From Candidatus Bathyarchaeia archaeon (lineage in GTDB: Archaea > Thermoproteota > Bathyarchaeia > 40CM-2-53-6): a stretch of DNA of 57,589 nucleotides. The stretch lies in assembly GCA_050012535.1 (NCBI GenBank), contig JBEKGZ010000001.1:1-57589 (forward strand), given 5' to 3'. Positions 18,743 through 32,833 of this stretch are shown in pieces. Below the pieces are notes generated by a model. That model did not search any database. It was given only the letters and a program-made list of their open reading frames with translations, and was not told the DNA's origin. Made by a program: the position numbers and the translations under genes. The number at the start of each line of letters is the position of its first letter. The first letter of the stretch is position 1.

Positions 18743-19120
18743 TTATTCTGGTGTTCTGGGGGTTCGCAACTTCTCTTGTAATTTCTGCTGAATGTCTTTG
18801 ATCCTCTCGCGTGTCCGTTCTTCCTGCCTTCCGAGTACGGTGACCCGGGTGTTGAGGAGTTCCTTTCTCTCGTTCAGTTCTGACAGGAGTGTCTGCCTGT
18901 CTGCTTTGACTAGGATGCTCCCGACACTCTTGTATACAGGGGTCTCGCCCACGATTTTCTCGAGCTCAGACACGGCTCTATCTGCTTCCGTCATATCCAT
19001 CTCCAGTTGCTGCTTCTGGGACACGACAGCCTGAAGCGTCTGTTGCAACTGCTGTAGCCTAACTAGTTCTTCCTGAACTTGAGGCGGAAGCTCTGTTCCT
19101 TCACTCATCGATTCCACCAT
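18743..19120 (-). CDS. pfdB: Prefoldin beta subunit
   Basis: 125-aa coiled-coil protein with the LQQLQQTLQAVVSQKQQLE pattern and the beta-hairpin core VYKSVGSILVK. Confidence 0.8.
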   Translation of the reverse strand: MVESMSEGTELPPQVQEELVRLQQLQQTLQAVVSQKQQLEMDMTEADRAVSELEKIVGETPVYKSVGSILVKADRQTLLSELNERKELLNTRVTVLGRQEERTRERIKDIQQKLQEKLRTPRTPE

Positions 19121-19469: not shown

Positions 19470-20585
19470 ATGGTCGAAGTGTTCATTCAGGATCGAGCCA
19501 GCGACGAAGCTACTTCAGCGAATGCCGGGATTCTGCGTATAGGCAAGGTCTCAGCGGCACTGCCAAACAAGTTTGCGACGACCGCTGAGCTGAACGCGAC
19601 GCGAATGGTCGGATCGAAGGATTCTCTTCCAGGAGAGGTGGTTGTCTCTGCCAAACTCATGTATCCAGACTCGCTCAAGAAGGTCCTCAAGGAGGATGCG
19701 TCTCTTCGAGATTTTGCGCGCAGACTGTCGCGGGAGGCAGGGGGATTCGAGGATGTCGCTAGACTGGTGTTTCTGATCTTCAAAGGTGAAGCGTCCTACG
19801 CCGAGGCGGAGGATCTGAGGACCTTGCTTGATCTGCAATACTTCGCGGACATGGATGTCGTGACGGTCCAGCAGGCGTCTGGGATGAGCCCTGAAGACTT
19901 CGCTTCACTACTGAAGTTCGCGGAGAGATGGATGGATCAGAAAGGCGTCGACAAGCCAATAATGCCAGTGATACAGGCATCGGAAACCCAGCGAGAGTTC
20001 GAGCTTTTCTCCGCACCAGCTGTGAAAGACAAGTCTCATCTCCTAGGGGTTGACATGAGGGGGGGCTTCCACTACTACACGCTCAGAGCTGTTGAGAAGA
20101 TCAAGAAGAAGAATCCGGGCATGTGGATTCATGCTTTTCAGGTTCCTCCGAAGATCAGGTTTGCGCGACATATGTTGCCGAGCTCTCAGGGCATGCTCAT
20201 GCCGTACTTTGGGGTGGACAGTTATTCAAGGTGGGTCGTGCCTCCACCGCCAGTTCCTCTCATAAAGGACAAAATCAATGTCTTCGACAAGTCAGGTTGG
20301 GGAGTCTTCAAGCGAAAGGAATGGATGGGACTACACGGCAAGAAGCTCACTTGCAAGTGCCCTATGTGCAAGGGTCAGAACCTCGACGGCTTCTACGTGG
20401 GAAAAGTTCTGACGGTACTGAGTCGTAGCAAAGTTCATGACCACTACGCGCAGCAGGACGAGCTGAAGAAGACCTCCGAAAGCATACGCAAGCACGAGTA
20501 CGGTCGACTGATAAAGACCAAGAAGTATGCCAATATGTTTGTAGGCGAGCTCAAGAAATCGCTTGAGGCCGAAACGAAACCTTAG
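19470..20585 (+). CDS. Orphan TGT-superfamily (tRNA/DNA-guanine transglycosylase-like, DpdA-like) protein
   Basis: FGVDSYS, then 44 aa, then CKCPMC, then 22 aa, then H. This reproduces the TGT catalytic-Asp strand plus the CxCxxCx22H zinc site. The N-terminal part is too divergent to assign. Confidence 0.5.
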   Translation: MVEVFIQDRASDEATSANAGILRIGKVSAALPNKFATTAELNATRMVGSKDSLPGEVVVSAKLMYPDSLKKVLKEDASLRDFARRLSREAGGFEDVARLVFLIFKGEASYAEAEDLRTLLDLQYFADMDVVTVQQASGMSPEDFASLLKFAERWMDQKGVDKPIMPVIQASETQREFELFSAPAVKDKSHLLGVDMRGGFHYYTLRAVEKIKKKNPGMWIHAFQVPPKIRFARHMLPSSQGMLMPYFGVDSYSRWVVPPPPVPLIKDKINVFDKSGWGVFKRKEWMGLHGKKLTCKCPMCKGQNLDGFYVGKVLTVLSRSKVHDHYAQQDELKKTSESIRKHEYGRLIKTKKYANMFVGELKKSLEAETKP

Positions 20586-21163
20586 CTCCCAGTCTCTGCG
20601 AGGAGGGTCATTAGGTCCCTAAGGTTCACTTCAGACTTTGTACGCCACCCGAGCGACAAGGATCCTGTCTCATCTTCTTTCAGGTACCCGTTTCGAACGA
20701 AAGCATCCATGAGCGTGAGCGTCTTCCATCTGCCGATCTTGTCGGCAATGAGTTTCTCCACCTCCTCACGTGGAGCTTTACCCTGTTTGGTCACTACATA
20801 CGCTATTGCGACCGTCAGGGCTGCCAGATTGTCGATTCGCCACCCGGATAGCCGTGCCTCCTTGGGTGTAAGCGTTCCTCGTAGCGTGACCAAGTATCGC
20901 GCGTCCTCGGTGTTGTCACCGAGCTGGCCTTCCCCGAGTTGTCTTGCTTGCGATTGGTCAGGTTCTACTCGTTTGACTTCAAGGTCAAGTTCGGATAGAA
21001 GCGCATCAACTTGTTTGAGGACTTCCTTGTAGTTTTTCCCGAGGCTGGCCTTCAGTTCCCACTCCTTCGCGCCTGGCATCTTACCTCGTTTGAAAAGCAG
21101 AAGGTGAATCGCATGCTTCAGCTTCTCACTGTAGAAGCGCTTCTCATCGGCAGCTTCTTGCAT
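20582..21163 (-). CDS. ScpB-like tandem winged-helix (kite) protein
   Basis: Two WH repeats match the ScpB pattern: IHLLLFKRG...ARYLVTLRG and NLAALTVAIAYVVTKQGKAPREEVEKLI. Last gene of the operon. Confidence 0.6.
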   Translation of the reverse strand: MQEAADEKRFYSEKLKHAIHLLLFKRGKMPGAKEWELKASLGKNYKEVLKQVDALLSELDLEVKRVEPDQSQARQLGEGQLGDNTEDARYLVTLRGTLTPKEARLSGWRIDNLAALTVAIAYVVTKQGKAPREEVEKLIADKIGRWKTLTLMDAFVRNGYLKEDETGSLSLGWRTKSEVNLRDLMTLLAETGS

Positions 21164-21181
21164 GAATCGCCATCTCCACTT

Positions 21182-22006
21182 TCAGAACGGGTTCGCCGTA
21201 ATAGTTGAGTGGTCGTCTTTGGTTATCGCAATCGGGAAGCTAACTAGCCCGGCAGCAGTCTTCTCGGTCGGTGTCGCCAGTGACATTAGTTTCAATTCGC
21301 TGGCGTCCCGCAGCATCTTCGCGTATCCGTAGGTGAGCAGGAAGCTTACGTAGTATGCTCGCTGAACGGTTTCTTGGTATGAACCCCGTCGAACGAACGA
21401 CCAATACTCGATGGAGCGCTCATCGCCGGTCTTTTCACGGAGTTCCTCCCATAGTCCGCGGAGGTTCCTCGCGAACTCTTCACGGGTCATGATGCCCGAC
21501 TTGACAAGCGAGTCCAAGTCAGTTGCCATGGGCTGGGCTGGCCTTCGTAGCGCTAGCCTCTTTCTTCTTTCCTCATACGAGAGTAGCTCATCCCAGTAAG
21601 CGAGCCCTTCTCGGACTGCATCCACTGTCAATTGCTCCCTCTCTACTATCGGATGCCAAGACTTGACGAAGATCTCACCGAGTCGCTTGATGGATAGCGA
21701 GCGGAACTTCCTCTCCAACATCTCAGGATTCGTGTAGAGTGCGCTCGACTGATATCGGAGCTGACTCTTCTGGAGGCCCAAGACTTCCGCTAGGTCCCGG
21801 ATAATCTCGGCGTCAAGACAGTGGTCATCAAGCAAGTCCCAATGGGGGAAATACTTGCGTAGCGTTTCGACTGCTAGACCTACATCCAAGAAGAAGGGGT
21901 TGAACTTGTGTTCTCTGATGGATCCGCATGTTTGGATGAGTTCGCGAAGCTCCTTTCTTCCAGACGTCAATCTGACGCGTTCTGGCTTCTTGTCGGGAGT
22001 CGTCAA
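21182..22006 (-). CDS. Kleisin-like (ScpA/Nse4-like) protein
   Basis: 274 aa. The start abuts the SMC-like stop with no gap. The N-terminal helix region is KFNPFFLDVGLAVETL and the C-terminal WH-like segment is ETVQRAYYVSFLLTYGYAKM. Assignment rests on position and pattern only. Confidence 0.45.
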   Translation of the reverse strand: MTTPDKKPERVRLTSGRKELRELIQTCGSIREHKFNPFFLDVGLAVETLRKYFPHWDLLDDHCLDAEIIRDLAEVLGLQKSQLRYQSSALYTNPEMLERKFRSLSIKRLGEIFVKSWHPIVEREQLTVDAVREGLAYWDELLSYEERRKRLALRRPAQPMATDLDSLVKSGIMTREEFARNLRGLWEELREKTGDERSIEYWSFVRRGSYQETVQRAYYVSFLLTYGYAKMLRDASELKLMSLATPTEKTAAGLVSFPIAITKDDHSTITANPF

Positions 22007-23983
22007 CTACTTCACCTGTGATATGACAGAGCTTCCCTCTATGTTCTGAACTACGACAACATGCACGTCGGTATCCGGCACTGTGACTTGTCCTGGCGTA
22101 ATTGCTATGTATTGCGTTTCTCCGAGTTCTCTCGCGCTCGCAACGATGAGTTTGGAGATGACTTCTCTATTCTTGGGGTCCAAGTGCACGTCGAACTCAT
22201 CGATCGCCCTGAACGGGGAGGCGATGTGTTGCTGCAACGCAAGCAGGAAGGCCATTAGCGCGATGCTTCTTTCGCCTCCGCTCTGGGTGAGTGAGTCAAG
22301 GCGCGTAGGCGGTGCGCCTTTGAATCCTACTAGGATGTCAAGTCCAGCCTGTTCTACGTTCTTCCCGACATTGAGCTTGAGCTCACCGGTCGCTCCCACT
22401 TCCAGGAGAATTTCGTTGTAGTGAGTCTCAAGGGACTGAAGGAAGGTGGAGACCACGTCTCTCCACCGTTCAAGCCGCTTCTCTACCTCCGCGATGACCT
22501 CATCTCTGTTTCGAGCCAGCTGCTCGGCCTTCCCGCGCAGGTCCTCGTACATGCTGGCATACGAGCTGTACATCTTCTCCACGTCCTCGGAGAGATGAGC
22601 AAGAGGCCGCAGTTGTTCCTCGACTGCACCGATGTCCAGTATGATGTCCGAAAGCTTTCTGGGATTCGCGAATCGTGGCCCCATCTGCTCGGCATTCGTG
22701 CGAAGCGGCGCAATCTCCTCCTCAAGCATTCTTCGCTGGGCTTCCAAGTCCGCCAGCTGCTCACTCAGCAACTTCCTCTTGAAACCAAGAACTTGAGTGT
22801 CAACTCTCGCATCGATGAGGCGCGAAAGTTCACTTTCTGTCCGTGTGTCCATGTCGTGGAGCGCGGTCTCTTTCGCTTGGAGTCTCTCTCGAGTGCGCCC
22901 GAGCTTCTCTTCTGTCTCTTCCCGAATTTGACCGAGAGCATCGAGCCATTCTCTCATCGCAACCGGAATGCCTTCGCCTTGATTAGACACTTCTGCCTGT
23001 GCGTTTGATTGTTCAGGGTTCTCCTTGGTCGCGGGTCGGAAAAGGCGTTTCTGTGACTCATCTCTGAACCTCTGAATCCATTCGACTGAGGAGGTTCCTG
23101 CTGCTTCCTGGCGTACCAGCTCAATGTATGCCTCGTGGACTTCGAATCGTTCTTTCAGATGCCTGTCATATCTCTCTTGACGGTGCTTGAGAGACTCATC
23201 CGCCTCAAGCAGCTTCTGATCAGCGCTCTCGATCATTCTCGCGCGCGATTCCGCCCTCTCTTGAATGCGGAGCAGTGCTTCCTCTCGTTTCAGGATCCTT
23301 GCCCAGGCCATCTCTCTCTTCAGTTCAGCAAGCTTACTGTCCAGTGCCTTCTTTTGGAGAAATCGTTCGTGTTCTCTCCGCCAGTATTCGTGGGTCTCCT
23401 TTGTGGACTCTAGGACTTGAGCGAGAGATTCCTCCTCTCCAGCTGCTTTTGTCAGCCGCTCATGCGCCTCTAGCACGTTGGATCGGTATGATTGAAATCC
23501 AACTGCCTCCTCTAACATCTTCAGCTTGTCGTTCGCGGAGATCGAAGCGAATCTGCCAACCATCAACTGGTGCATGATAACGAGGATGTTGTCGGGGTTC
23601 AGGCCGTATCTCACAAGCGCGCTCGTCACTTCGTTCTTCGTCACAGGATGGTCTTGAACGAGGTACTGGTAACTGCCGTTTCGCTTCAGAATACGGGTCA
23701 CGGTTACCGTGTCGACGTGGTACTGCGGGAACGGTTTGCCGTGCTCTCTAGGACGATTGTCAAGCTGAAGTGTGATGCGTGCCTCGTCAGCTCGCCATCT
23801 TATCAAGTCGCTTAGACGGCGAGCTCGTTCTGTGTATGTCTGACCCAGGACGACGGATATCGCGAGAAGGATGGATGACTTTCCAGCTCCATTGGGTCCA
23901 CAGATCAGATTTAGCCCTGACTCTAGGGGGACGTACGCGTTTTCGTACGACATGAAATTCGTCAGAGCTATGCCTTTGATCAT
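22007..23983 (-). CDS. Short-armed, hinge-less SMC-like ABC ATPase (Smc5/6-like head)
   Basis: Walker A GPNGAGKSS, signature SGGERS and Walker B FRAIDEFDVHLDPKNRE. The long heptad-rich middle has no hinge glycine motif and no CxxC hook. The likely start is ATG 23983 (MIKGIALTNF); the longest ORF starts at 24067. Confidence 0.75.
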   Translation of the reverse strand: MIKGIALTNFMSYENAYVPLESGLNLICGPNGAGKSSILLAISVVLGQTYTERARRLSDLIRWRADEARITLQLDNRPREHGKPFPQYHVDTVTVTRILKRNGSYQYLVQDHPVTKNEVTSALVRYGLNPDNILVIMHQLMVGRFASISANDKLKMLEEAVGFQSYRSNVLEAHERLTKAAGEEESLAQVLESTKETHEYWRREHERFLQKKALDSKLAELKREMAWARILKREEALLRIQERAESRARMIESADQKLLEADESLKHRQERYDRHLKERFEVHEAYIELVRQEAAGTSSVEWIQRFRDESQKRLFRPATKENPEQSNAQAEVSNQGEGIPVAMREWLDALGQIREETEEKLGRTRERLQAKETALHDMDTRTESELSRLIDARVDTQVLGFKRKLLSEQLADLEAQRRMLEEEIAPLRTNAEQMGPRFANPRKLSDIILDIGAVEEQLRPLAHLSEDVEKMYSSYASMYEDLRGKAEQLARNRDEVIAEVEKRLERWRDVVSTFLQSLETHYNEILLEVGATGELKLNVGKNVEQAGLDILVGFKGAPPTRLDSLTQSGGERSIALMAFLLALQQHIASPFRAIDEFDVHLDPKNREVISKLIVASARELGETQYIAITPGQVTVPDTDVHVVVVQNIEGSSVISQVK

Positions 23984-24085
23984 CCATCGGATCTTCCGGG
24001 TCGGGTAGCGAACCTTCCAGCTCGGTAAAAAGTTTCGGGGTCCCAATACCCCATGTGCCATGCTCAAGGGAGGGGTGATTAGAGC

Positions 24086-26941
24086 TTAGTCCCAGAAAGG
24101 GCGGGTCTGAATGTATCTCAGTTTGGCCTCAAGGAGATCTGCATAGAAATCCTCGTCTCGCACATGCATTTTGGCGAGGATACCAGCGGCGGTTTGAGGA
24201 CCGACGCCCCAGGTGAGCAATGCTATGGCTGCCTGTCTACCGTATGAAAGGACTAGGTCTGCCGCTCGCCTAGCCCTACTTAGAACTGCCTGCTCTTCTT
24301 CCGTCAGCTCTTCTCTTGATTTCCGTTTCTGAAGGATCTGAGGAACATCTGATCTGACTTTGCTCCTTAAGGCAAGCAGGCCTGATCCACAAGACTGGCA
24401 CTTTGGGAACTCAGGAAGACTCTCAACGCGCTCTTCCTCTAGGGTAGAACCGCATTGTAAGCACAGGAACCCCACCTTTTGTGCAAGAAGAGAAGCCCTC
24501 ATGCGCGAGAGGTTGTCCTTCTTTGTGCTTTCAGGTGCAACCATCTCCGCGACTTCGACGAGCTTATTCAACATGTAGAACCCCTGTGGGGTGGGAGAGT
24601 CGTCAGATAGCAAGGGGATGACCGCTATTGCGCCGTTGGCAATCGAGCTCATCACCTTCTTTGCCGTGATTAGGTCAACTTTGGTCAGTTTCGCCTCCCG
24701 CATTGTTTCCTCATGAATTGGCGTTGACTCGAAGCGAGCAGACAACTCGAGGAGCGTGCGGTCGCTCAGGAATATGCCACGAGGAATGGCACCGAATCTC
24801 TGAGCGATGAACTTCATGTTGTATGCAAAAGGAAAGCGTCTTTGAGCGTATTCGGAGAACTTCCTCTCTATCATCTGCTCCGACATTGAGAAGAGTTCCT
24901 TTGAGATCCTGTTGAGATTCTCACGAGAAACCGTTTCGGGCAGTCCGATCAAGATACGGTAGCCGTCGGCCCAGACGTTGTTCACTCCGTTACGTTCCGT
25001 CAGAAACTCATCAAACGCGTAAGCGAGAGCTCGGTTGACTGCATCCCCGAATGAGCTGTGTATTATCAGGTACCGATCAAACGCTTCAACCAGAACCGCA
25101 TGGTCAGTCGGAACCGGGCAGCCTCTCTTGGCGTAGTCCTCGATCTCCTCAGTAATCCTTGTAGCGGCGAGTCTCTCAATTGGATAGCTGCACAGGTTTG
25201 CGATTGTGCGTTCCTTTCCCATCACCCTCAGGCTTACCTCGACTTCGCCTCTTATTCTACCAACTTCCTGCGCAACCTCGAATGGAACCGGCAAGATCTC
25301 GCCGTCCCAACCTGGTATTGCGGCGGTTGGGTCTTCGATGGGAACAACGTAGATATTACCGTCCTCTCCGACTCTCGTGATCTCCCAGACGCGCCCGCGA
25401 CAAATGAAGTGAACACCCTTTCGAGCGTGCAATACGACGAATTCCTCACCGAGGATTCCTATTCTCCGTTGAGTCGTGATATCAAGTATCGAGTACCTGC
25501 GCTCATCAGGTATCATGGAGAGATTCTGATAGTAGTAATGTCTCGTCCTAGGAGTTCGCTTTAACATCTTAGCTGTTTTTCGGAGCATACCTCGCGCTTC
25601 CATGAATGTTACGACTGATCGAAATTCCTCAGTTGTGACGGTTGCGAAGGCGCTGGATCGTCTGACAACCGAGAGTATGTCTCTCAAAGTCGCACGTTCG
25701 CTATCCATCAGAATGCCGGCAACTTGGTGAGCCAGGACATCTAGAGCATTCGAGTGGATCCGCGTTGGCTCCAGCTGTTGCTCCCTCGCCCTTCTTGTGA
25801 TGGCGATCGACTCGAGCACGTCTTCAGGATAGGCGCATATCAGGACCCCTTCAGAAATGCGGCCGAGACGATGACCCGACCTGCCGACGCGCTGGATTAG
25901 GGCTGAGACCTGCCTAGGCGACATGTACTGAACAGTAAGGTCTACGCTACCAATATCGATCCCAAGCTGCAAAGTTGATGTGCAAATGATCCCTCTTAGG
26001 ATGCCTGCCTTGAATTCGCCTTCGATACGCGAACGCTCTTCCCGCGAGAGGGATCCGTGGTGCACTGCAATGCGCTTGTCTAGTTTTCCCAATCTTAGGC
26101 CGAGCATCTCCGCATGCTGCCGGCTATTGACAAAGATCAGTGTGGAAGTATGAGTGTCGACAAGTTCTTTGATCCTCGAAATTCGAGCAGCAGCATCTGG
26201 ACTCGTGTAGAGTGACTGAGCAAGATCATGATCCTCAGGAGTCGGATAAGGATACTCAACATGATACTTGGCTTCTTTCTCCAAGTTGACCCTTACTATC
26301 TCACACTGCTCACCTGACCCAACGAGAAAGTCCGCCACCTTCTCGGGATCGCCGACCGTGGCCGAGAGACCAATTCTCTGAAAACGCCTTCGCGTGATCA
26401 ATCTCAACCGTTCTAAGGCAACGGTGAGTTGCGCTCCCCGCTTGTCCTGGGCAAGTTCATGAATCTCATCGACGATCACTGCTCGGAGAGATCTCAGGTG
26501 TCTTCGCATTGCCTTGCTGGGCAATATCGCTTGAAGCGTCTCAGGAGTTGTTATAAGAATCTCCGGAGGATCCCTGGATTGCTTTCGCCTCTGAGATGCG
26601 GGAGTATCTCCGTGGCGAATCTCACATCGAACCCCGATCTTCGCCGTGAGTTGAGTTGCCCTACCGAAGAGGTCTCTGTTTAGAGCACGAAGAGGCGTCA
26701 CGTATAGAATCGCAATTCCCTTGCGTCTCTCCTCTGTAACGAGTCGGCTCAAGAGGGGAAGAAGCGCCGCCTCTGTCTTTCCGCTTGCTGTCGGCGACAC
26801 CAGCAGCACATTCTCGCCACGGAGAATGTGGGGTATCGCCATAGCTTGAGGTTGAGTGGGCGATTGAATCCCAAGATCCAGCAGCGCTGCACGAACTGGA
26901 TTCGCTAGAGCATCGAAGACCGACGCGTGTGTTTTCGACAA
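24086..26941 (-). CDS. lhr: Lhr-type superfamily 2 DNA helicase
   Basis: Motifs SPTASGKT, VIVDEIHEL, LSATVG, HHGSLSREER and QRVGRSGH, plus a C-terminal Cys4 ribbon (CLQCG..CQSCG). 951 aa. Confidence 0.8.
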   Translation of the reverse strand: MSKTHASVFDALANPVRAALLDLGIQSPTQPQAMAIPHILRGENVLLVSPTASGKTEAALLPLLSRLVTEERRKGIAILYVTPLRALNRDLFGRATQLTAKIGVRCEIRHGDTPASQRRKQSRDPPEILITTPETLQAILPSKAMRRHLRSLRAVIVDEIHELAQDKRGAQLTVALERLRLITRRRFQRIGLSATVGDPEKVADFLVGSGEQCEIVRVNLEKEAKYHVEYPYPTPEDHDLAQSLYTSPDAAARISRIKELVDTHTSTLIFVNSRQHAEMLGLRLGKLDKRIAVHHGSLSREERSRIEGEFKAGILRGIICTSTLQLGIDIGSVDLTVQYMSPRQVSALIQRVGRSGHRLGRISEGVLICAYPEDVLESIAITRRAREQQLEPTRIHSNALDVLAHQVAGILMDSERATLRDILSVVRRSSAFATVTTEEFRSVVTFMEARGMLRKTAKMLKRTPRTRHYYYQNLSMIPDERRYSILDITTQRRIGILGEEFVVLHARKGVHFICRGRVWEITRVGEDGNIYVVPIEDPTAAIPGWDGEILPVPFEVAQEVGRIRGEVEVSLRVMGKERTIANLCSYPIERLAATRITEEIEDYAKRGCPVPTDHAVLVEAFDRYLIIHSSFGDAVNRALAYAFDEFLTERNGVNNVWADGYRILIGLPETVSRENLNRISKELFSMSEQMIERKFSEYAQRRFPFAYNMKFIAQRFGAIPRGIFLSDRTLLELSARFESTPIHEETMREAKLTKVDLITAKKVMSSIANGAIAVIPLLSDDSPTPQGFYMLNKLVEVAEMVAPESTKKDNLSRMRASLLAQKVGFLCLQCGSTLEEERVESLPEFPKCQSCGSGLLALRSKVRSDVPQILQKRKSREELTEEEQAVLSRARRAADLVLSYGRQAAIALLTWGVGPQTAAGILAKMHVRDEDFYADLLEAKLRYIQTRPFWD

Positions 26942-27177: not shown

Positions 27178-27411
27178 TTGAGGAAGTTGGGCAAGGTCCT
27201 TCATGTGTCGAAAAGCCATGCCCTCATCGTGAAACTTGATCCTCCGAGATTTGTACGACCTGGCACGAAGGCCTGTGATAGTAAACTGAAGAGTGTCGGT
27301 GTCGTGATGGACATCCTCGGCCCAGTTTCTGGACCGTACGCCTCCGTGAAGCCAACGATTGCTAAGCCAGAATCGGTCGTCGGACGAACAGTATACGCCC
27401 TTGAAGACTGA
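27178..27411 (+). CDS. gar1: H/ACA RNP protein Gar1
   Basis: MRKLGKVLHVSKS.ALIVK...GVVMDILGPVSGPYASVKP matches archaeal Gar1. TTG start. 77 aa. Confidence 0.75.
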   Translation: MRKLGKVLHVSKSHALIVKLDPPRFVRPGTKACDSKLKSVGVVMDILGPVSGPYASVKPTIAKPESVVGRTVYALED

Positions 27412-27424
27412 TAATGGTGGAAAG

Positions 27425-28378
27425 ATGGAAGACGCACAAGTAGATCCAGTAGAAGCCGTGCAACCCCAACCGAGAATCAGAGTCTGCCCGGAGTGTGGCG
27501 GCTCCAAGTTAATGCGAGACTACGACGCTGCCGAGATTGTATGTGTCAATTGCGGGTGCGTGATTGCTGAGAAGTTGGCTGACAGTCGACCGGAATGGCG
27601 CGCATTCGATGACGAACAGAAAGCAAAGAGGTCTCGCGCAGGCGCGCCCCTGACTTTCACAATTCATGACAAAGGTCTCTCGACAGTCATCGACTGGCGG
27701 GATAGAAGAGGAAGCGGTCGACAGATGAGTGCGACCGAACGCCTCGACATGTACAAGCTTCGCAAATGGCAAAGACGAGTGCGCGTTTCAGACGCAACGG
27801 AACGCAACTTGGCAGTTGCTCTATCTGAATTGAGCAAGCTAGCGTCAACGCTGAACCTTCCGAAGAACCTTCTCGAAACAGCTTCCGTCATTTACAGGCG
27901 CGCCATAAAGAAAAGACTCATACGTGGAAGATCGATTCACAACGTGACTGCGGCCGCGATCTACATGAGCTGCAGGCAATGCGGTGTTCCAAGGACACTC
28001 GACGAGATTGCGAGCGCCAGTAGCCTGAGCAAGAAAGACATCGGCAGGAGCTACCGCTTCATGGTTCGAGAGCTAGAAACCTTCGTGCCTCCATCTACAA
28101 GTCGCCACTATGCAGCCCGCTTCAGCAACAAACTGGTAATCTCCGGAAAGGCTGAGGCGATGGCGATTCGCATACTTGAAACGGCGACACGAATGAAATT
28201 GACAAGCGGCAGGGGGCCGACCGGAATCGCTGCTGCCGCAACATACATTGCCGCTGTGCTGACGAATGAGCGGAAGACGCAACGCGAGATCGCTGAGATC
28301 GCGAACGTCACAGAAGTGACGATTCGCAATCGCTACAAGGAGCTACTTGAGCGACTATTCATCGAAGTTCCAATGTAA
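27425..28378 (+). CDS. tfb: Transcription initiation factor IIB (TFB)
   Basis: Zn ribbon CPECGG..CVNCG, a B-reader (RPEWRAF) and two cyclin repeats. The likely start is ATG 27425; the longest ORF starts at 27359 and overlaps gar1. Confidence 0.9.
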   Translation: MEDAQVDPVEAVQPQPRIRVCPECGGSKLMRDYDAAEIVCVNCGCVIAEKLADSRPEWRAFDDEQKAKRSRAGAPLTFTIHDKGLSTVIDWRDRRGSGRQMSATERLDMYKLRKWQRRVRVSDATERNLAVALSELSKLASTLNLPKNLLETASVIYRRAIKKRLIRGRSIHNVTAAAIYMSCRQCGVPRTLDEIASASSLSKKDIGRSYRFMVRELETFVPPSTSRHYAARFSNKLVISGKAEAMAIRILETATRMKLTSGRGPTGIAAAATYIAAVLTNERKTQREIAEIANVTEVTIRNRYKELLERLFIEVPM

Positions 28379-29578: not shown

Positions 29579-32500
29579 CTAATGCGACTTCCGCAGCTTT
29601 CGTATGCCAGAATGACGCTGCCGACGATGAGATGTGGTGCGTTTCCGGTGCCTGCGTAGGCCAATTGAGAAGACATCATCTCCGATTGACCATTCTTTAA
29701 CAAGCTCGCCGTGCGCCTTCGCTGGGTCGGACTTTTGGACCACTAGCGTCCGTGCTCGCACTTCACCCAAGATGTAGTCATGTCTACTCTTCACAGATGA
29801 TGCTGTCTCATCTGTTGATGCGACCACATCAACGTTGACGAAATCGTCCACCCTAAGGTCCATCTCCTTGCGCATCTGTTGAATTCTTCTGACCAAGTCG
29901 CGCGCCAGACCGTCTGCGACCTCATCGGGAGAAAGTGTTGTGTCGATGGATACCCTGCCTCCGTCAAAGTCCGCGGCAGGCTCGGCATCCTTCGCTTCTT
30001 CGATGAAATTCACGTATTTGTCGTATATCGTTACCTTCTCGGAGTCGATTTCAATCTCTACTTTTCCCTGGGACAGCTGCTTCCTAAGATCCTCGGGATT
30101 CATAGCTGTCAGCTTTTGAGCCACTTTTGCCGCTCGCGACTTGAGCTCGGGGCCAAGCGTGGCCATGATCGGCACAGTTCGAAGGGTGACGCTCTCTTTC
30201 GATTCGGATGGCAGAGACACATTCAGAGATCGAGTGTTCATCTGGTCGAGAAGAAGAGCCTTCATCCGTAGCACGGCATCGCGCACTTCATCCTTTCCGG
30301 TGACAATGTTCACGCTCCTCACTGGTTGTCTAAGCTTGAGGCCTGCCTTCATTCTCGCCATCGCGGCCGCAGAGATAACTCGCTGACAGATGTCAAGTCG
30401 TCTCTCTAGGTCGTCATCCCGCCATACGCTGTTCGCTTTAGGCCAATCAAGTGCATGAACTGTGACGTGCGGTTTCGCCGTCGCGGATTTGAACATGCCT
30501 TGGTAGAGCGCCTCGGCGATGAACGGAGTAAAGGGAGCTATCATTACTGCAGCTTGGCGCAGTGCGTGAGAGAGGACCGCGTAACTGGCTAGTTTGTCAG
30601 GGTTCTCTTTTTCAACCCATGTTCGTTTTCTAACCAGCCGAATGTAGTTGTGACTGAGATCTTCAACGAGGAAGGTCCGCAAAGTCCGCACGGCTTCATG
30701 GATGCGGTAACCTTCCATTGCTGAACTCACAGACTCGATCGTGTGTTCAGTGCGGCTCATTAGCCAGAGATCCTCTTCCCTCATATGCTGCCTCATCTTC
30801 TCAGGCGGGTGCTCGGTTGGGTCAAATCTGTCTAGGTTCATGTAGGTACTGGCAAACACGTACACGTTCCAGATTGTTTGAAGGTCTCCGGCGATCTGTG
30901 CAAGAACCTTCCATGAGAATCTCAGATCTTCCCAAGGCGTATTCTGCAGCACGTACAATCGAAGCGCGTCGCGTCCATGTCGATCGATCGCCTCTTGCGG
31001 CACTACGAAATTGCCAAGAGACTTGTGCATCTCACGTCCTTGCTCATCGAGCATGAAACCGTGCATGAGCACTGTCTTGTATGGAGTCTCCCCAAACGCC
31101 ACGAGGCCAGCCTTGAGTAGAGAGAAGAACCATCCGGAGATCTGGTCGCGTCCTTCCACGATGAAGTCCGCTGGCCACCATTTCTTCGCTTCAGCTTGGC
31201 TCTTCGGATATCCTAGGCATGCATAGGATGAGACCCCGGAATCGAACCATCCTACCATCACGTCAGGGAGTCTTCTCATCTGGCCTCCGCAGGCGCATTT
31301 GAGCCTGACTTCGTTAACCCAAGGGACATGCATCTCTTTGGGTATCTTGTTGTCAATGCTCTTTTCCTTTAGCTCCTTCAATGAACCGATAACTTCTCTG
31401 CGCTTGCAGGACTCGCATACCCAGATTGGGAGCGGCGTACCCCAGAATCGCTGTCTCGAGATGACCCAGTCTCTCAGTCCTTGGAGCCAGTTGCGGAACT
31501 GATTTGCACCAGCCCAGTCTGGGATCCATCGGGTTGCCTCGATGTCGGCGATCATCTTGTCGCGCATCTGGGTGACTTTGATGAACCATTGGTCGGTCGC
31601 GCGTATGATAAGCTGAGTGTGGCAACGCCAGCAGACGGGACTTCTGTGAACTATCTCACCTGCGAAGAGAAGTGCCCCCCTCGCTTTGAGGTCCTCGATC
31701 ACCTCTGGGTTTGCCTGTCTGACATCCTTGCCAGCATACTTACCTGCTTCAGCAACCATCTTGCCTTGGCTGTCGACTAACATGACCACCGGAAGTCCGG
31801 TGCGGCGACCCACTTCATAGTCCTCTTCTCCATGCCCAGGGGCTGAATGCACGCATCCAGTTCCATCTTCGAGAGTCACGTACTCTGCACTGAGCACAAC
31901 GCGATGACCGCCCGTCATGTGAGCTTGTGCAGGAACTATGTCCGCCAAGGGGGATTTGTATCGAAGGCCCTCGATCGTTTGCCCCTTGAACGTCTCCAAC
32001 AGTTCAAGCTTTGTACCGGTCTCTGCGGCAACATACGGTATTCTTTCCTTCGCCATGATGTAGACTTCGTTTTCGCATCTCACACGCGCGTACTCGTATT
32101 CTGGGTGAACCATCACGGCGGTGTTCGATGGCAGCGTCCAAGGTGTAGTAGTCCAGATGAGAATGTACTCGTTCTCGCGTCCCTCAACTGGAAACTTCAC
32201 ATAGATTGACGGATCTCTCAGCTCGCGATACTCCAAGACAACCTCATAATCGGACAGTACAGTCTCGCAACGAGGGCACCAGTGGACAACCTTCAAACCA
32301 TGTTCCAGAAGCCCGTCCTCGTGCGACTTCTTCACAGTCCACCATGCGGACTCAACGTACGCATTATCGTCGGTGAGATAGGGTCGTTTCCAATCCATCC
32401 ACACTCCGAGGTCGGCGAATATCCGGCTCATTGCCTTTGAGTTGGTGTTGGCGAAATCCTTGCACTCGGAGACGAACTTGTCGAGACCGTATACTTCCAC

Positions 32501-32833
32501 ATCGCGCTTCTGTTTGAAATCGTGTTGCCGCTCAATGGCGAGCTCGATTGGCAGGCCATGGCAATCATATCCAGGCTGGTCTCTGCAATTGAAGCCCATT
32601 GACCTTTCGTACCTAAGGACCACGTCCTTGACGACCTTGTTCCAGCATGTGCCAATGTGAGGCGTGTCTGATGAGGGGAAGGGAGGACCGTCAAGGAAGT
32701 AGAATTTCGGGCCGTCAGATCTCTGTGCCTTCACCACCTCGTACGCGCTGGCCTTCTTCCAGAGGCTTTGTACGGTCTGTTCGACTTCCTTCCAGTTGTA
32801 TGTCTTAGCTAATGCTCCGATCTCATGCTTCAA
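29579..32833 (-). CDS. ileS: Isoleucyl-tRNA synthetase
   Basis: HIGH-type TPHIGT, KMSKS-type EMHKSLGN and a CP1 editing domain. 1084 aa. Confidence 0.9.
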   Translation of the reverse strand: MKHEIGALAKTYNWKEVEQTVQSLWKKASAYEVVKAQRSDGPKFYFLDGPPFPSSDTPHIGTCWNKVVKDVVLRYERSMGFNCRDQPGYDCHGLPIELAIERQHDFKQKRDVEVYGLDKFVSECKDFANTNSKAMSRIFADLGVWMDWKRPYLTDDNAYVESAWWTVKKSHEDGLLEHGLKVVHWCPRCETVLSDYEVVLEYRELRDPSIYVKFPVEGRENEYILIWTTTPWTLPSNTAVMVHPEYEYARVRCENEVYIMAKERIPYVAAETGTKLELLETFKGQTIEGLRYKSPLADIVPAQAHMTGGHRVVLSAEYVTLEDGTGCVHSAPGHGEEDYEVGRRTGLPVVMLVDSQGKMVAEAGKYAGKDVRQANPEVIEDLKARGALLFAGEIVHRSPVCWRCHTQLIIRATDQWFIKVTQMRDKMIADIEATRWIPDWAGANQFRNWLQGLRDWVISRQRFWGTPLPIWVCESCKRREVIGSLKELKEKSIDNKIPKEMHVPWVNEVRLKCACGGQMRRLPDVMVGWFDSGVSSYACLGYPKSQAEAKKWWPADFIVEGRDQISGWFFSLLKAGLVAFGETPYKTVLMHGFMLDEQGREMHKSLGNFVVPQEAIDRHGRDALRLYVLQNTPWEDLRFSWKVLAQIAGDLQTIWNVYVFASTYMNLDRFDPTEHPPEKMRQHMREEDLWLMSRTEHTIESVSSAMEGYRIHEAVRTLRTFLVEDLSHNYIRLVRKRTWVEKENPDKLASYAVLSHALRQAAVMIAPFTPFIAEALYQGMFKSATAKPHVTVHALDWPKANSVWRDDDLERRLDICQRVISAAAMARMKAGLKLRQPVRSVNIVTGKDEVRDAVLRMKALLLDQMNTRSLNVSLPSESKESVTLRTVPIMATLGPELKSRAAKVAQKLTAMNPEDLRKQLSQGKVEIEIDSEKVTIYDKYVNFIEEAKDAEPAADFDGGRVSIDTTLSPDEVADGLARDLVRRIQQMRKEMDLRVDDFVNVDVVASTDETASSVKSRHDYILGEVRARTLVVQKSDPAKAHGELVKEWSIGDDVFSIGLRRHRKRTTSHRRQRHSGIRKLRKSH

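Follow-up and report, generated by a model that had tools for sequence, protein, structure and literature searches.

Archaeal relatives of the eukaryotic Smc5/6 complex are the closest described counterparts of the locus analyzed here. Homologues designated SMC5/6-related aSMC have been defined mainly in TACK archaea, Bathyarchaeota included (Yoshinaga and Inagaki 2021, PMC8665677), and operons encoding an SMC5/6-related SMC, an Nse4-related kleisin and an Nse1/3-related kite have been reported in TACK and Asgard archaea (van Hooff et al., 10.1101/2024.01.07.573240); for Bathyarchaeia, Table S3 of the latter study lists Nse4-related and Nse1/3-related proteins together with an ScpB-like kite. 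Here we analyze a 57,589-nt contig stretch (hereafter the window) of a Candidatus Bathyarchaeia archaeon (JBEKGZ010000001.1, assembly GCA_050012535.1), in which three adjacent genes for an SMC-like ATPase, a kleisin-like and a kite-like protein lie next to a gene for an Lhr helicase. We consider it likely that positions 20582-23983 encode an archaeal SMC5/6-related complex, expressed as a translationally coupled operon from its own promoter and working more probably as a local clamp or sensor than as an extruder, with the Lhr helicase standing apart from it.

An earlier note on this DNA had described four co-directional genes, and all four open reading frames (ORFs) were confirmed on the minus strand. 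Read along that strand, the Lhr gene (24086-26941, 951 aa), a neighbour rather than a core part of the system, is followed after a spacer of 102 nt by the gene for the SMC5/6-related ATPase (22007-23983, 658 aa). The stop codon of the latter abuts the TTG start of the gene for the Nse4-like kleisin (21182-22006, 274 aa), leaving a spacer of 0 nt, and a further 18 nt separate the kleisin gene from that of the Nse1/Nse3-like kite (20582-21163, 193 aa). The ORF of the ATPase is open as far as 24067, yet every homologue (all the 658-aa homologues) begins with MIKGI, which marks the true start. No additional conserved partner gene was found in the operon of the window, which also contains no further SMC-like ORF besides the ATPase of the trio.

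The arrangement of these three genes was compared across two sets, one of 85 loci with SMC identities of 54-95% and one of 53 species-level genome loci. In the first set the SMC, kleisin and kite genes are adjacent and in the same order in every locus, wherever the contig reaches that far. In the second, the kleisin was detected in 46 loci, with its gene directly after that of the SMC, and the kite in 42, with its gene after that of the kleisin; the order is always the same, and the remaining loci mostly lie at a contig edge or have a partner that went undetected. Altogether about 130 loci, drawn from Bathyarchaeia, Hadarchaeota, Methanomethylicia, Culexmicrobium, Nitrososphaerota and Hodarchaeaceae, share this order, with genes that abut or overlap, a degree of conservation far beyond chance. 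The SMC family is near-universal in the clade of the window, and it was not found in the plasmid and phage collections searched. Because its subunit types, gene order and taxa (TACK, with Bathyarchaeota, and Asgard) are those of the published operons, the window trio is a member of the archaeal SMC5/6-related complex family that has already been described, with heads nearest to Smc5/6, a kleisin nearest to Nse4 and a kite nearest to Nse1/3, and nothing essential differs in the window. The module, left without an assigned family in the earlier note, thus belongs to one that is already known.

The identity of the ATPase was established from sequence and structure comparisons. The protein matches Pfam SMC_N (8e-36) and carries a complete set of motifs that are invariant in 19 homologues, comprising the Walker A motif GPNGAGKS (residues 29-36), Q139, the signature SGGE (568-571), the Walker B pair D595-E596 and H641. 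When it was searched with phmmer against all PDB sequences, the best match was yeast Smc5 (8e-35), ahead of an archaeal Smc from P. yayanosii (1.5e-25) and Smc6 (1e-22), with the SMCs of cohesin and condensin and Rad50 (about 1e-6) far lower. Likewise, a Foldseek search with the AlphaFold2 model of the protein returned cryo-EM chains of Smc6 and Smc5 as the best matches. The Smc5/6-like character ascribed to the ATPase in the earlier note is therefore borne out, and its head is closer to Smc5 and Smc6 than to canonical SMC, Rad50 or RecN. The protein falls below every curated NCBIfam cut-off, including those of TIGR02168 and TIGR02169 (201.7 vs 729.4 and 154.3 vs 567 bits), Rad50 (about 50 bits vs cut-offs of 700-1000), ASRP (54 vs 300) and RecN (36 vs 408). 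It scores 26 bits for JetC, its LmuB matches cover only the N-terminal P-loop, and it shows no match to Pfam SMC_hinge. In an exhaustive search of a library of 1.84 billion representative proteins, the nearest full-length matches outside the family are 1000-1250 aa long; several of them are named SMC5 and come from amoebozoans and a chytrid, and a canonical hinge-bearing SMC (P0468) scores about equal to these eukaryotic SMC5 proteins.

The two partner proteins point in the same direction. A profile of the kleisin family, searched against the whole PDB, retrieved human NSE4/EID3 (7e-6), yeast Nse4 (1.5e-3) and nothing else, the matching part being the C-terminal winged helix in both cases, and Pfam Nse4_C is matched by 21 of 24 family members, so that the kleisin suspected in the 274-aa protein proves to be one of the Nse4 type. 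For the kite family, weak, sub-threshold matches to Pfam SMC_Nse1 were obtained in 16 of 21 members (best 8e-4), and the top five Foldseek matches of a model built with database homologues are MAGE-G1/NSE1, Nse1-Nse3-Nse4 and MAGEA4 structures, with E values of 1e-5 to 1e-3. MukE ranks below these Nse1, Nse3 and MAGE structures, and the top 50 contain no ScpB structure. A search of PDB sequences with the kite profile gave nothing significant, and neither kleisin nor kite yielded a Pfam or NCBIfam match to ScpA or ScpB at E <= 0.1. The 193-aa protein can be assigned with moderate confidence, from its modelled fold, to the Nse1/Nse3-related tandem winged-helix kites, having two winged-helix modules and no RING. 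Of the two ScpB-like winged helices proposed for it earlier, the tandem winged-helix kite stands, with its affinity shifted from ScpB to Nse1, Nse3 and MAGE by the Foldseek and SMC_Nse1 matches.

The most distinctive property of the ATPase is the organization of its arms. The AlphaFold2 model (mean pLDDT 75, about 90 in the arms) places a helix at residues 164-314, a disordered 26-residue loop at 315-340 (pLDDT <50) and further helices at 341-434, 444-461 and 467-529, which together make up a jointed antiparallel arm, about 150 residues long, that ends without a globular apex. Cysteines are missing from the middle of the protein, and the model neither leaves space for a hinge domain nor predicts one. 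Arms of canonical SMC proteins extend over some 330-350 residues each, and those of the window protein therefore reach about 40-45% of normal length. To place this architecture in the context of the family, we aligned 50 representatives (541-685 aa) taken from clusters at 50% identity. Residues 281-370 of the window protein show the lowest conservation (0.06-0.24) and the most gaps (up to 80%) in the alignment, none of the 50 short representatives carries a CxxC motif, and no apex cysteine is present in them or in the window protein. SMC lengths among the 53 species-level loci are similarly short, at 580-690 aa. Both the model and the alignment bear out the statement in the earlier note that the protein has neither hinge nor zinc hook.

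Departures from this short form occur elsewhere in the family. A conserved apical 'C(D/E)(K/R)CGS' motif, similar to the zinc hook of Rad50, was observed in the long Bathyarchaeota members P0378 (residues 542-545), P0381 (531-534), P0385 (522-525) and P0431 (541-544), of which P0378, P0381 and P0385 are rare relatives of about 1016-1047 aa. Hinge-like middles are present in P0394, P0448 (Freyarchaeum; Pfam SMC_hinge 4.6e-11) and P0484. In a rough neighbour-joining tree with unsupported deep nodes, the hinge-bearing forms are basal and the CxxC forms nest within the short clade (88% bootstrap), a topology suggesting that the hinge was lost first and that the CxxC forms would have gained a hook secondarily. 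Word searches of the main text of PMC8665677 and of 10.1101/2024.01.07.573240, and of the supplements of the latter preprint, returned nothing on the short hinge-less architecture, and this feature of the family is under-described. A separate clade of hinge-less SMC proteins has been reported from ocean metagenomes (PMC12153180); it is bacterial (assigned to Actinomycetes), and no partners have been reported for it.

The composition of the trio invites comparison with Smc-ScpAB, with which it shares the combination of SMC, kleisin and kite, the operon organization and an ABC-type head. Together with the 'chromosome segregation ATPase' label given to the family in source annotations and with its near-universal presence in the clade, this composition is what could be expected if the complex were the main condensin-like loop extruder of the cell, substituting for Smc-ScpAB. 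We regard that reading as unlikely, since the arms are well under half of normal length, the protein has neither an SMC_hinge domain nor a hook, and its score for the NCBIfam SMC model lies far below the cut-off (202 bits vs 729). Furthermore, the listing of an ScpB-like kite beside the Nse-type proteins of Bathyarchaeia suggests that a separate canonical complex exists there.

Compared with eukaryotic Smc5/6, the trio shares the sequence and fold of the head, the Nse4_C winged helix, the tandem winged-helix kite of the MAGE/Nse1 type and, probably, the clamping of DNA by the head module. The eukaryotic complex is a Smc5-Smc6 heterodimer joined by hinges, whereas the window encodes a single SMC, which would form a homodimer, with no hinge and with arms less than half as long as those of its eukaryotic counterparts. 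Unlike in the eukaryotic holocomplex, the kite is devoid of the Nse1 RING, and genes for Nse2, Nse5 and Nse6 are not present at the locus. A head joined to an antiparallel coiled coil without globular hinge is a feature held in common with Rad50/SbcC, with ASRP proteins (ClsN, Sph) and with the marine hinge-less clade. However, the Rad50-like zinc-hook CxxC occurs in a few long family members (P0378, P0381 and P0385) and is missing from the window protein, the Mre11-type nuclease that partners Rad50 has no counterpart adjacent to the window locus, and the trio includes kleisin and kite partners that Rad50 and ASRP do not have.

Wadjet (JetABCD) and Lamassu (LmuACB) also combine an SMC-family ATPase with accessory subunits, and a weak JetB-like signal is detectable in the kite. 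Eukaryotic Smc5/6 restricts episomal and viral DNA, which provides a precedent for an anti-plasmid or anti-virus surveillance function analogous to Wadjet or to Smc5/6-mediated restriction; weak PADLOC matches, to JetB for the kite (E = 0.0034) and to mad3, LmuB and AriA for the ATPase head, would agree with such a function, and a short-armed SMC could sense small DNA circles. We nonetheless judge surveillance to be very unlikely. The ATPase matches are confined to the generic P-loop head, and no nuclease, Toprim protein (JetD) or LmuA-type effector is encoded in the operon, in its flanks or in related loci. The setting is that of housekeeping genes rather than of a defence island: TFB (27359-28378) lies on the upstream side of the Lhr-SMC locus, IleRS occupies 29579-32833 and prefoldin beta 18743-19120, and those of the 85 loci with enough flank carry TFB and IleRS upstream and a convergent 371-aa gene, prefoldin, DUF3194 and DHH downstream. 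This synteny is deeply conserved, inheritance is vertical across the whole class, the guanine-cytosine (GC) content of the window is uniform (0.52-0.54) with no anomaly at the locus, and the family was not found on plasmids or phages in the collections searched. A mobile element or defence island, considered as a candidate explanation of the locus, was rejected on GC content, housekeeping synteny and absence from the plasmid and phage collections, and scans of the window for tRNA and Rfam families found nothing. For SMC-ScpAB, Rad50-Mre11, Wadjet and Lamassu alike, which the earlier note had set aside, the defining features are missing here.

The relationship between the archaeal SMC5/6-related trio and its upstream neighbour is a different matter. 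The helicase contains Pfam DEAD, Helicase_C, WH_Lhr and DEAD_assoc domains and ends in a CLQC...CQSC motif. The aLhr1 group has been defined by the Lhr core (RecA1, RecA2, WH and Domain 4) followed by a C-terminal cysteine-rich motif (Hajj et al. 2021, PMC8301817), and the window protein is assigned by its sequence to the aLhr1 type because it combines the Lhr core with a C-terminal CxxC...CxxC motif. The same study identified no aLhr1 neighbourhood conserved across archaea.

In the window, as in about 10 close relatives, Lhr precedes the SMC gene in the same orientation at a distance of 102 nt, an arrangement that in the earlier note was read as transcriptional fusion and from which one could derive a four-gene machine that counts the Lhr helicase among the integral subunits of the SMC-kleisin-kite complex. 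The spacer, however, contains a candidate promoter element on the minus strand (23984-24040) with a BRE/TATA-like box, GAAACTTTTTAC (24025-24036), situated 48-53 nt before the SMC ATG. The box is kept in relatives with Lhr, in relatives with Lhr remnants and in relatives with no detectable Lhr gene, and the same motif occurs at the same distance from the SMC gene in a clade of 55% SMC identity that has no Lhr at the locus. This element is likely, as a prediction, to be the trio's own promoter. Lhr is intact in the window, but among close relatives with SMC identities of 77-92%, at least seven different internal deletions of it were found, and the trio is intact throughout. The remnant in L007 retains residues 1-180 and 815-951, that in L011 residues 7-351 and 725-951, and that in L014 only residues 152-204; the degraded 3' end of Lhr persists even in relatives that would otherwise be classed as lacking the gene. 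In about 50 loci of the sister clade of approximately 55% identity there is no Lhr, and only 450-600 nt separate TFB from the SMC gene.

With a promoter-like element intervening and retained where Lhr has been deleted or is absent, the transcriptional fusion advanced in the earlier note does not stand, and the conservation of the Lhr linkage that it had proposed to check breaks down within close relatives and in the 55%-identity clade. Conservation of gene order beyond this genome, on which its reading had been staked, was found for the trio and not for Lhr. That a gene has decayed independently so often at the same locus is unusual in itself; the Lhr remnants recorded lie at L007:8945-9896, L008:9767-9922, L011:8219-9897, L014:9658-9816, L023:9155-9897, L026:9083-9897, L031:201-557 and L060:1577-2298.

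The proximity of aLhr1 to the trio in more distant archaea speaks for a connection of some kind. Nine of the 53 species-level loci (six of the 21 whose flanks both reach 5 kb or more) have an aLhr1 gene no more than 10 kb from the trio, compared with roughly 0.3-0.6 occurrences expected over the 618 kb of flank examined according to our own estimate, which ignores phylogeny and assumes that a 2-Mb genome has one or two Lhr genes. These nine loci span four lineages (Bathyarchaeia, Hadarchaeota, Methanomethylicia and Hodarchaeaceae), the C-terminal cysteine motif is found in every full-length Lhr near the trio in the other lineages, and unbiased clustering of all flank ORFs ranks Lhr as the second most widespread neighbour family across phyla. 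These observations could be cited for the four-gene machine, but most trio loci have no Lhr nearby, and outside the close relatives of the window aLhr1 is mostly convergent and 10-4500 nt away, usually just downstream of the kite (Hodarchaeaceae L135, 10 nt; Hadarchaeota L114, 364 nt; Bathyarchaeota L107, 758 nt), so that it is not co-transcribed. Taken with the conserved promoter-like element of the trio, the deletions that leave the trio intact and the Lhr-free loci of the 55%-identity clade, this makes an integral Lhr subunit distinctly unlikely.

Because of the conserved promoter-like box, the repeated deletions and the Lhr-free sister clade, we regard Lhr as a separately transcribed and dispensable neighbour, rather than as a member of the operon or a subunit of the complex. 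A loose, non-obligate functional association between aLhr1 and the trio, with a link in fork or repair biology, is nevertheless plausible. Archaeal Lhr prefers fork structures (PMC7437997), and yeast Smc5/6 restrains the fork-remodelling helicase Mph1 (PMC11335289); cooperation of the trio and Lhr at forks would therefore be a reasonable lead.

A working model of the archaeal SMC5/6-related complex can be drawn by homology with Smc5/6, Smc-ScpAB and MukBEF. The ATPase would homodimerise, and its two heads would engage on ATP, with the kleisin, via its Nse4_C-type winged helix, bridging one head at the neck and the other at the cap, and with a kite dimer sitting on the kleisin. The head module would then clamp double-stranded DNA as in yeast Smc5/6, where the head clamps DNA together with Nse4, Nse1 and Nse3 (PMC9191643). 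In such a scheme the complex may serve repair or the maintenance of replication forks as a local DNA clamp or sensor that is gated by ATP, and the upstream aLhr1 may cooperate functionally with it, not as a subunit. A local clamp or sensor is favoured over a long-range loop extruder because the arms measure about 150 residues and the apex has no hinge, hook or conserved residues, and the same lack of hinge, hook or conserved apex makes a closed SMC-kleisin ring doubtful. Several observations weigh against this interpretation. What is proposed for binding at neck and cap, for stoichiometry and for the clamping of DNA is extrapolated from homologous complexes. The neighbour-joining tree, rough and indicative only, is consistent with a Smc5/6-like head, but its deep nodes are unsupported. 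No similarity to Nse4_N could be detected in the N-terminal domain of the kleisin, confidence in the kite model is low (pLDDT 60, template modelling (TM) scores of 0.3-0.4), and the head regions of the ATPase are modelled with only moderate confidence.

Two further gene families adjoin the trio. In the window, a gene of unassigned function encoding a 371-aa protein (19470-20585, plus strand) converges on the kite gene with a 4-nt overlap. Its family has an invariant CxCxxC...H(D)H motif and possibly a TGT/DpdA-like fold; neither the protein nor its profile matches any Pfam or PDB entry, and weak matches to Pfam DpdA occur in two of 19 homologues, at E values of 0.008 or worse. The flanking gene called TGT-like in the earlier note is present, with a label that those matches support weakly. 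This gene adjoins the trio only in relatives with SMC identities of at least 47% and is syntenic only within this Bathyarchaeia order, and because of this limited synteny we do not count it as part of the system. A Dpd-like DNA-modification cluster, made up of the TGT-like gene and a Lhr/DpdJ-like helicase, was also considered and rejected: generic Lhr models far outscore DpdJ, and no DpdB or DpdC is present.

Outside the clade of the window, the most widespread neighbour of the trio is an uncharacterised family of about 230 aa, present in 18 of the 53 species-level loci. At least 12 loci, which belong to Hadarchaeota, Culexmicrobium, Methanomethylicia, Nitrososphaerota, Hodarchaeaceae and some Bathyarchaeia, have it in divergent orientation 47-215 nt upstream of the SMC gene. 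Examples, all minus relative to SMC, are L114:285-989, L115:3486-4214, L118:7234-7944, L120:9211-9915, L122:9223-9909, L123:9233-9907, L131:7072-7776, L132:9201-9872, L133:9209-9895 and L135:9171-9869. The family has no Pfam, NCBIfam or PDB match and occurs neither in the window nor in loci L001-L085. Its product may act as a fourth partner or regulate the trio. Neither Lhr nor this divergent neighbour came up in word searches of the main text of the two archaeal SMC5/6 papers and of the supplements of the preprint.

Second SMC-type genes were also observed near the trio in some genomes. A Nitrososphaerota locus (L125:8391-12422, minus strand) encodes a 1343-aa canonical-type SMC about 2 kb from the trio, with both SMC systems side by side, and two Bathyarchaeia genomes (L099:6034-8124 and L104:4670-6778, both minus strand) carry a second SMC-superfamily ORF of about 700 aa some 2-3 kb upstream of the trio, distant from the trio ATPase (E values of 1e-5 to 1e-6).

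The operon itself adds little to current knowledge, as archaeal SMC5/6-related operons, including those of Bathyarchaeia, have already been published. The function of SMC-kleisin complexes is commonly thought to need a closed tripartite ring, and the finding that the closest prokaryotic relatives of Smc5/6 are mostly proteins of 540-690 aa with no hinge or hook makes it worth asking whether that need is real. A more tentative generalization, to which we assign low credence, is that the predominant archaeal relative of Smc5/6 would be a mini SMC-kleisin-kite machine without a dimerisation domain at the tip of its arms, acting as an ATP-gated clamp on DNA instead of a closed ring and partnered functionally with the fork-remodelling helicase aLhr1 or, elsewhere, with the 230-aa protein, and that it would foreshadow the Smc5/6-Mph1/FANCM axis. 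The trio, with subunits of 658, 274 and 193 aa, offers a compact system for structural work on the Smc5/6 head module, and the recurrence of aLhr1 as a non-obligate neighbour in four archaeal lineages provides a testable lead on two poorly understood factors, for instance at stalled forks or recombination intermediates.

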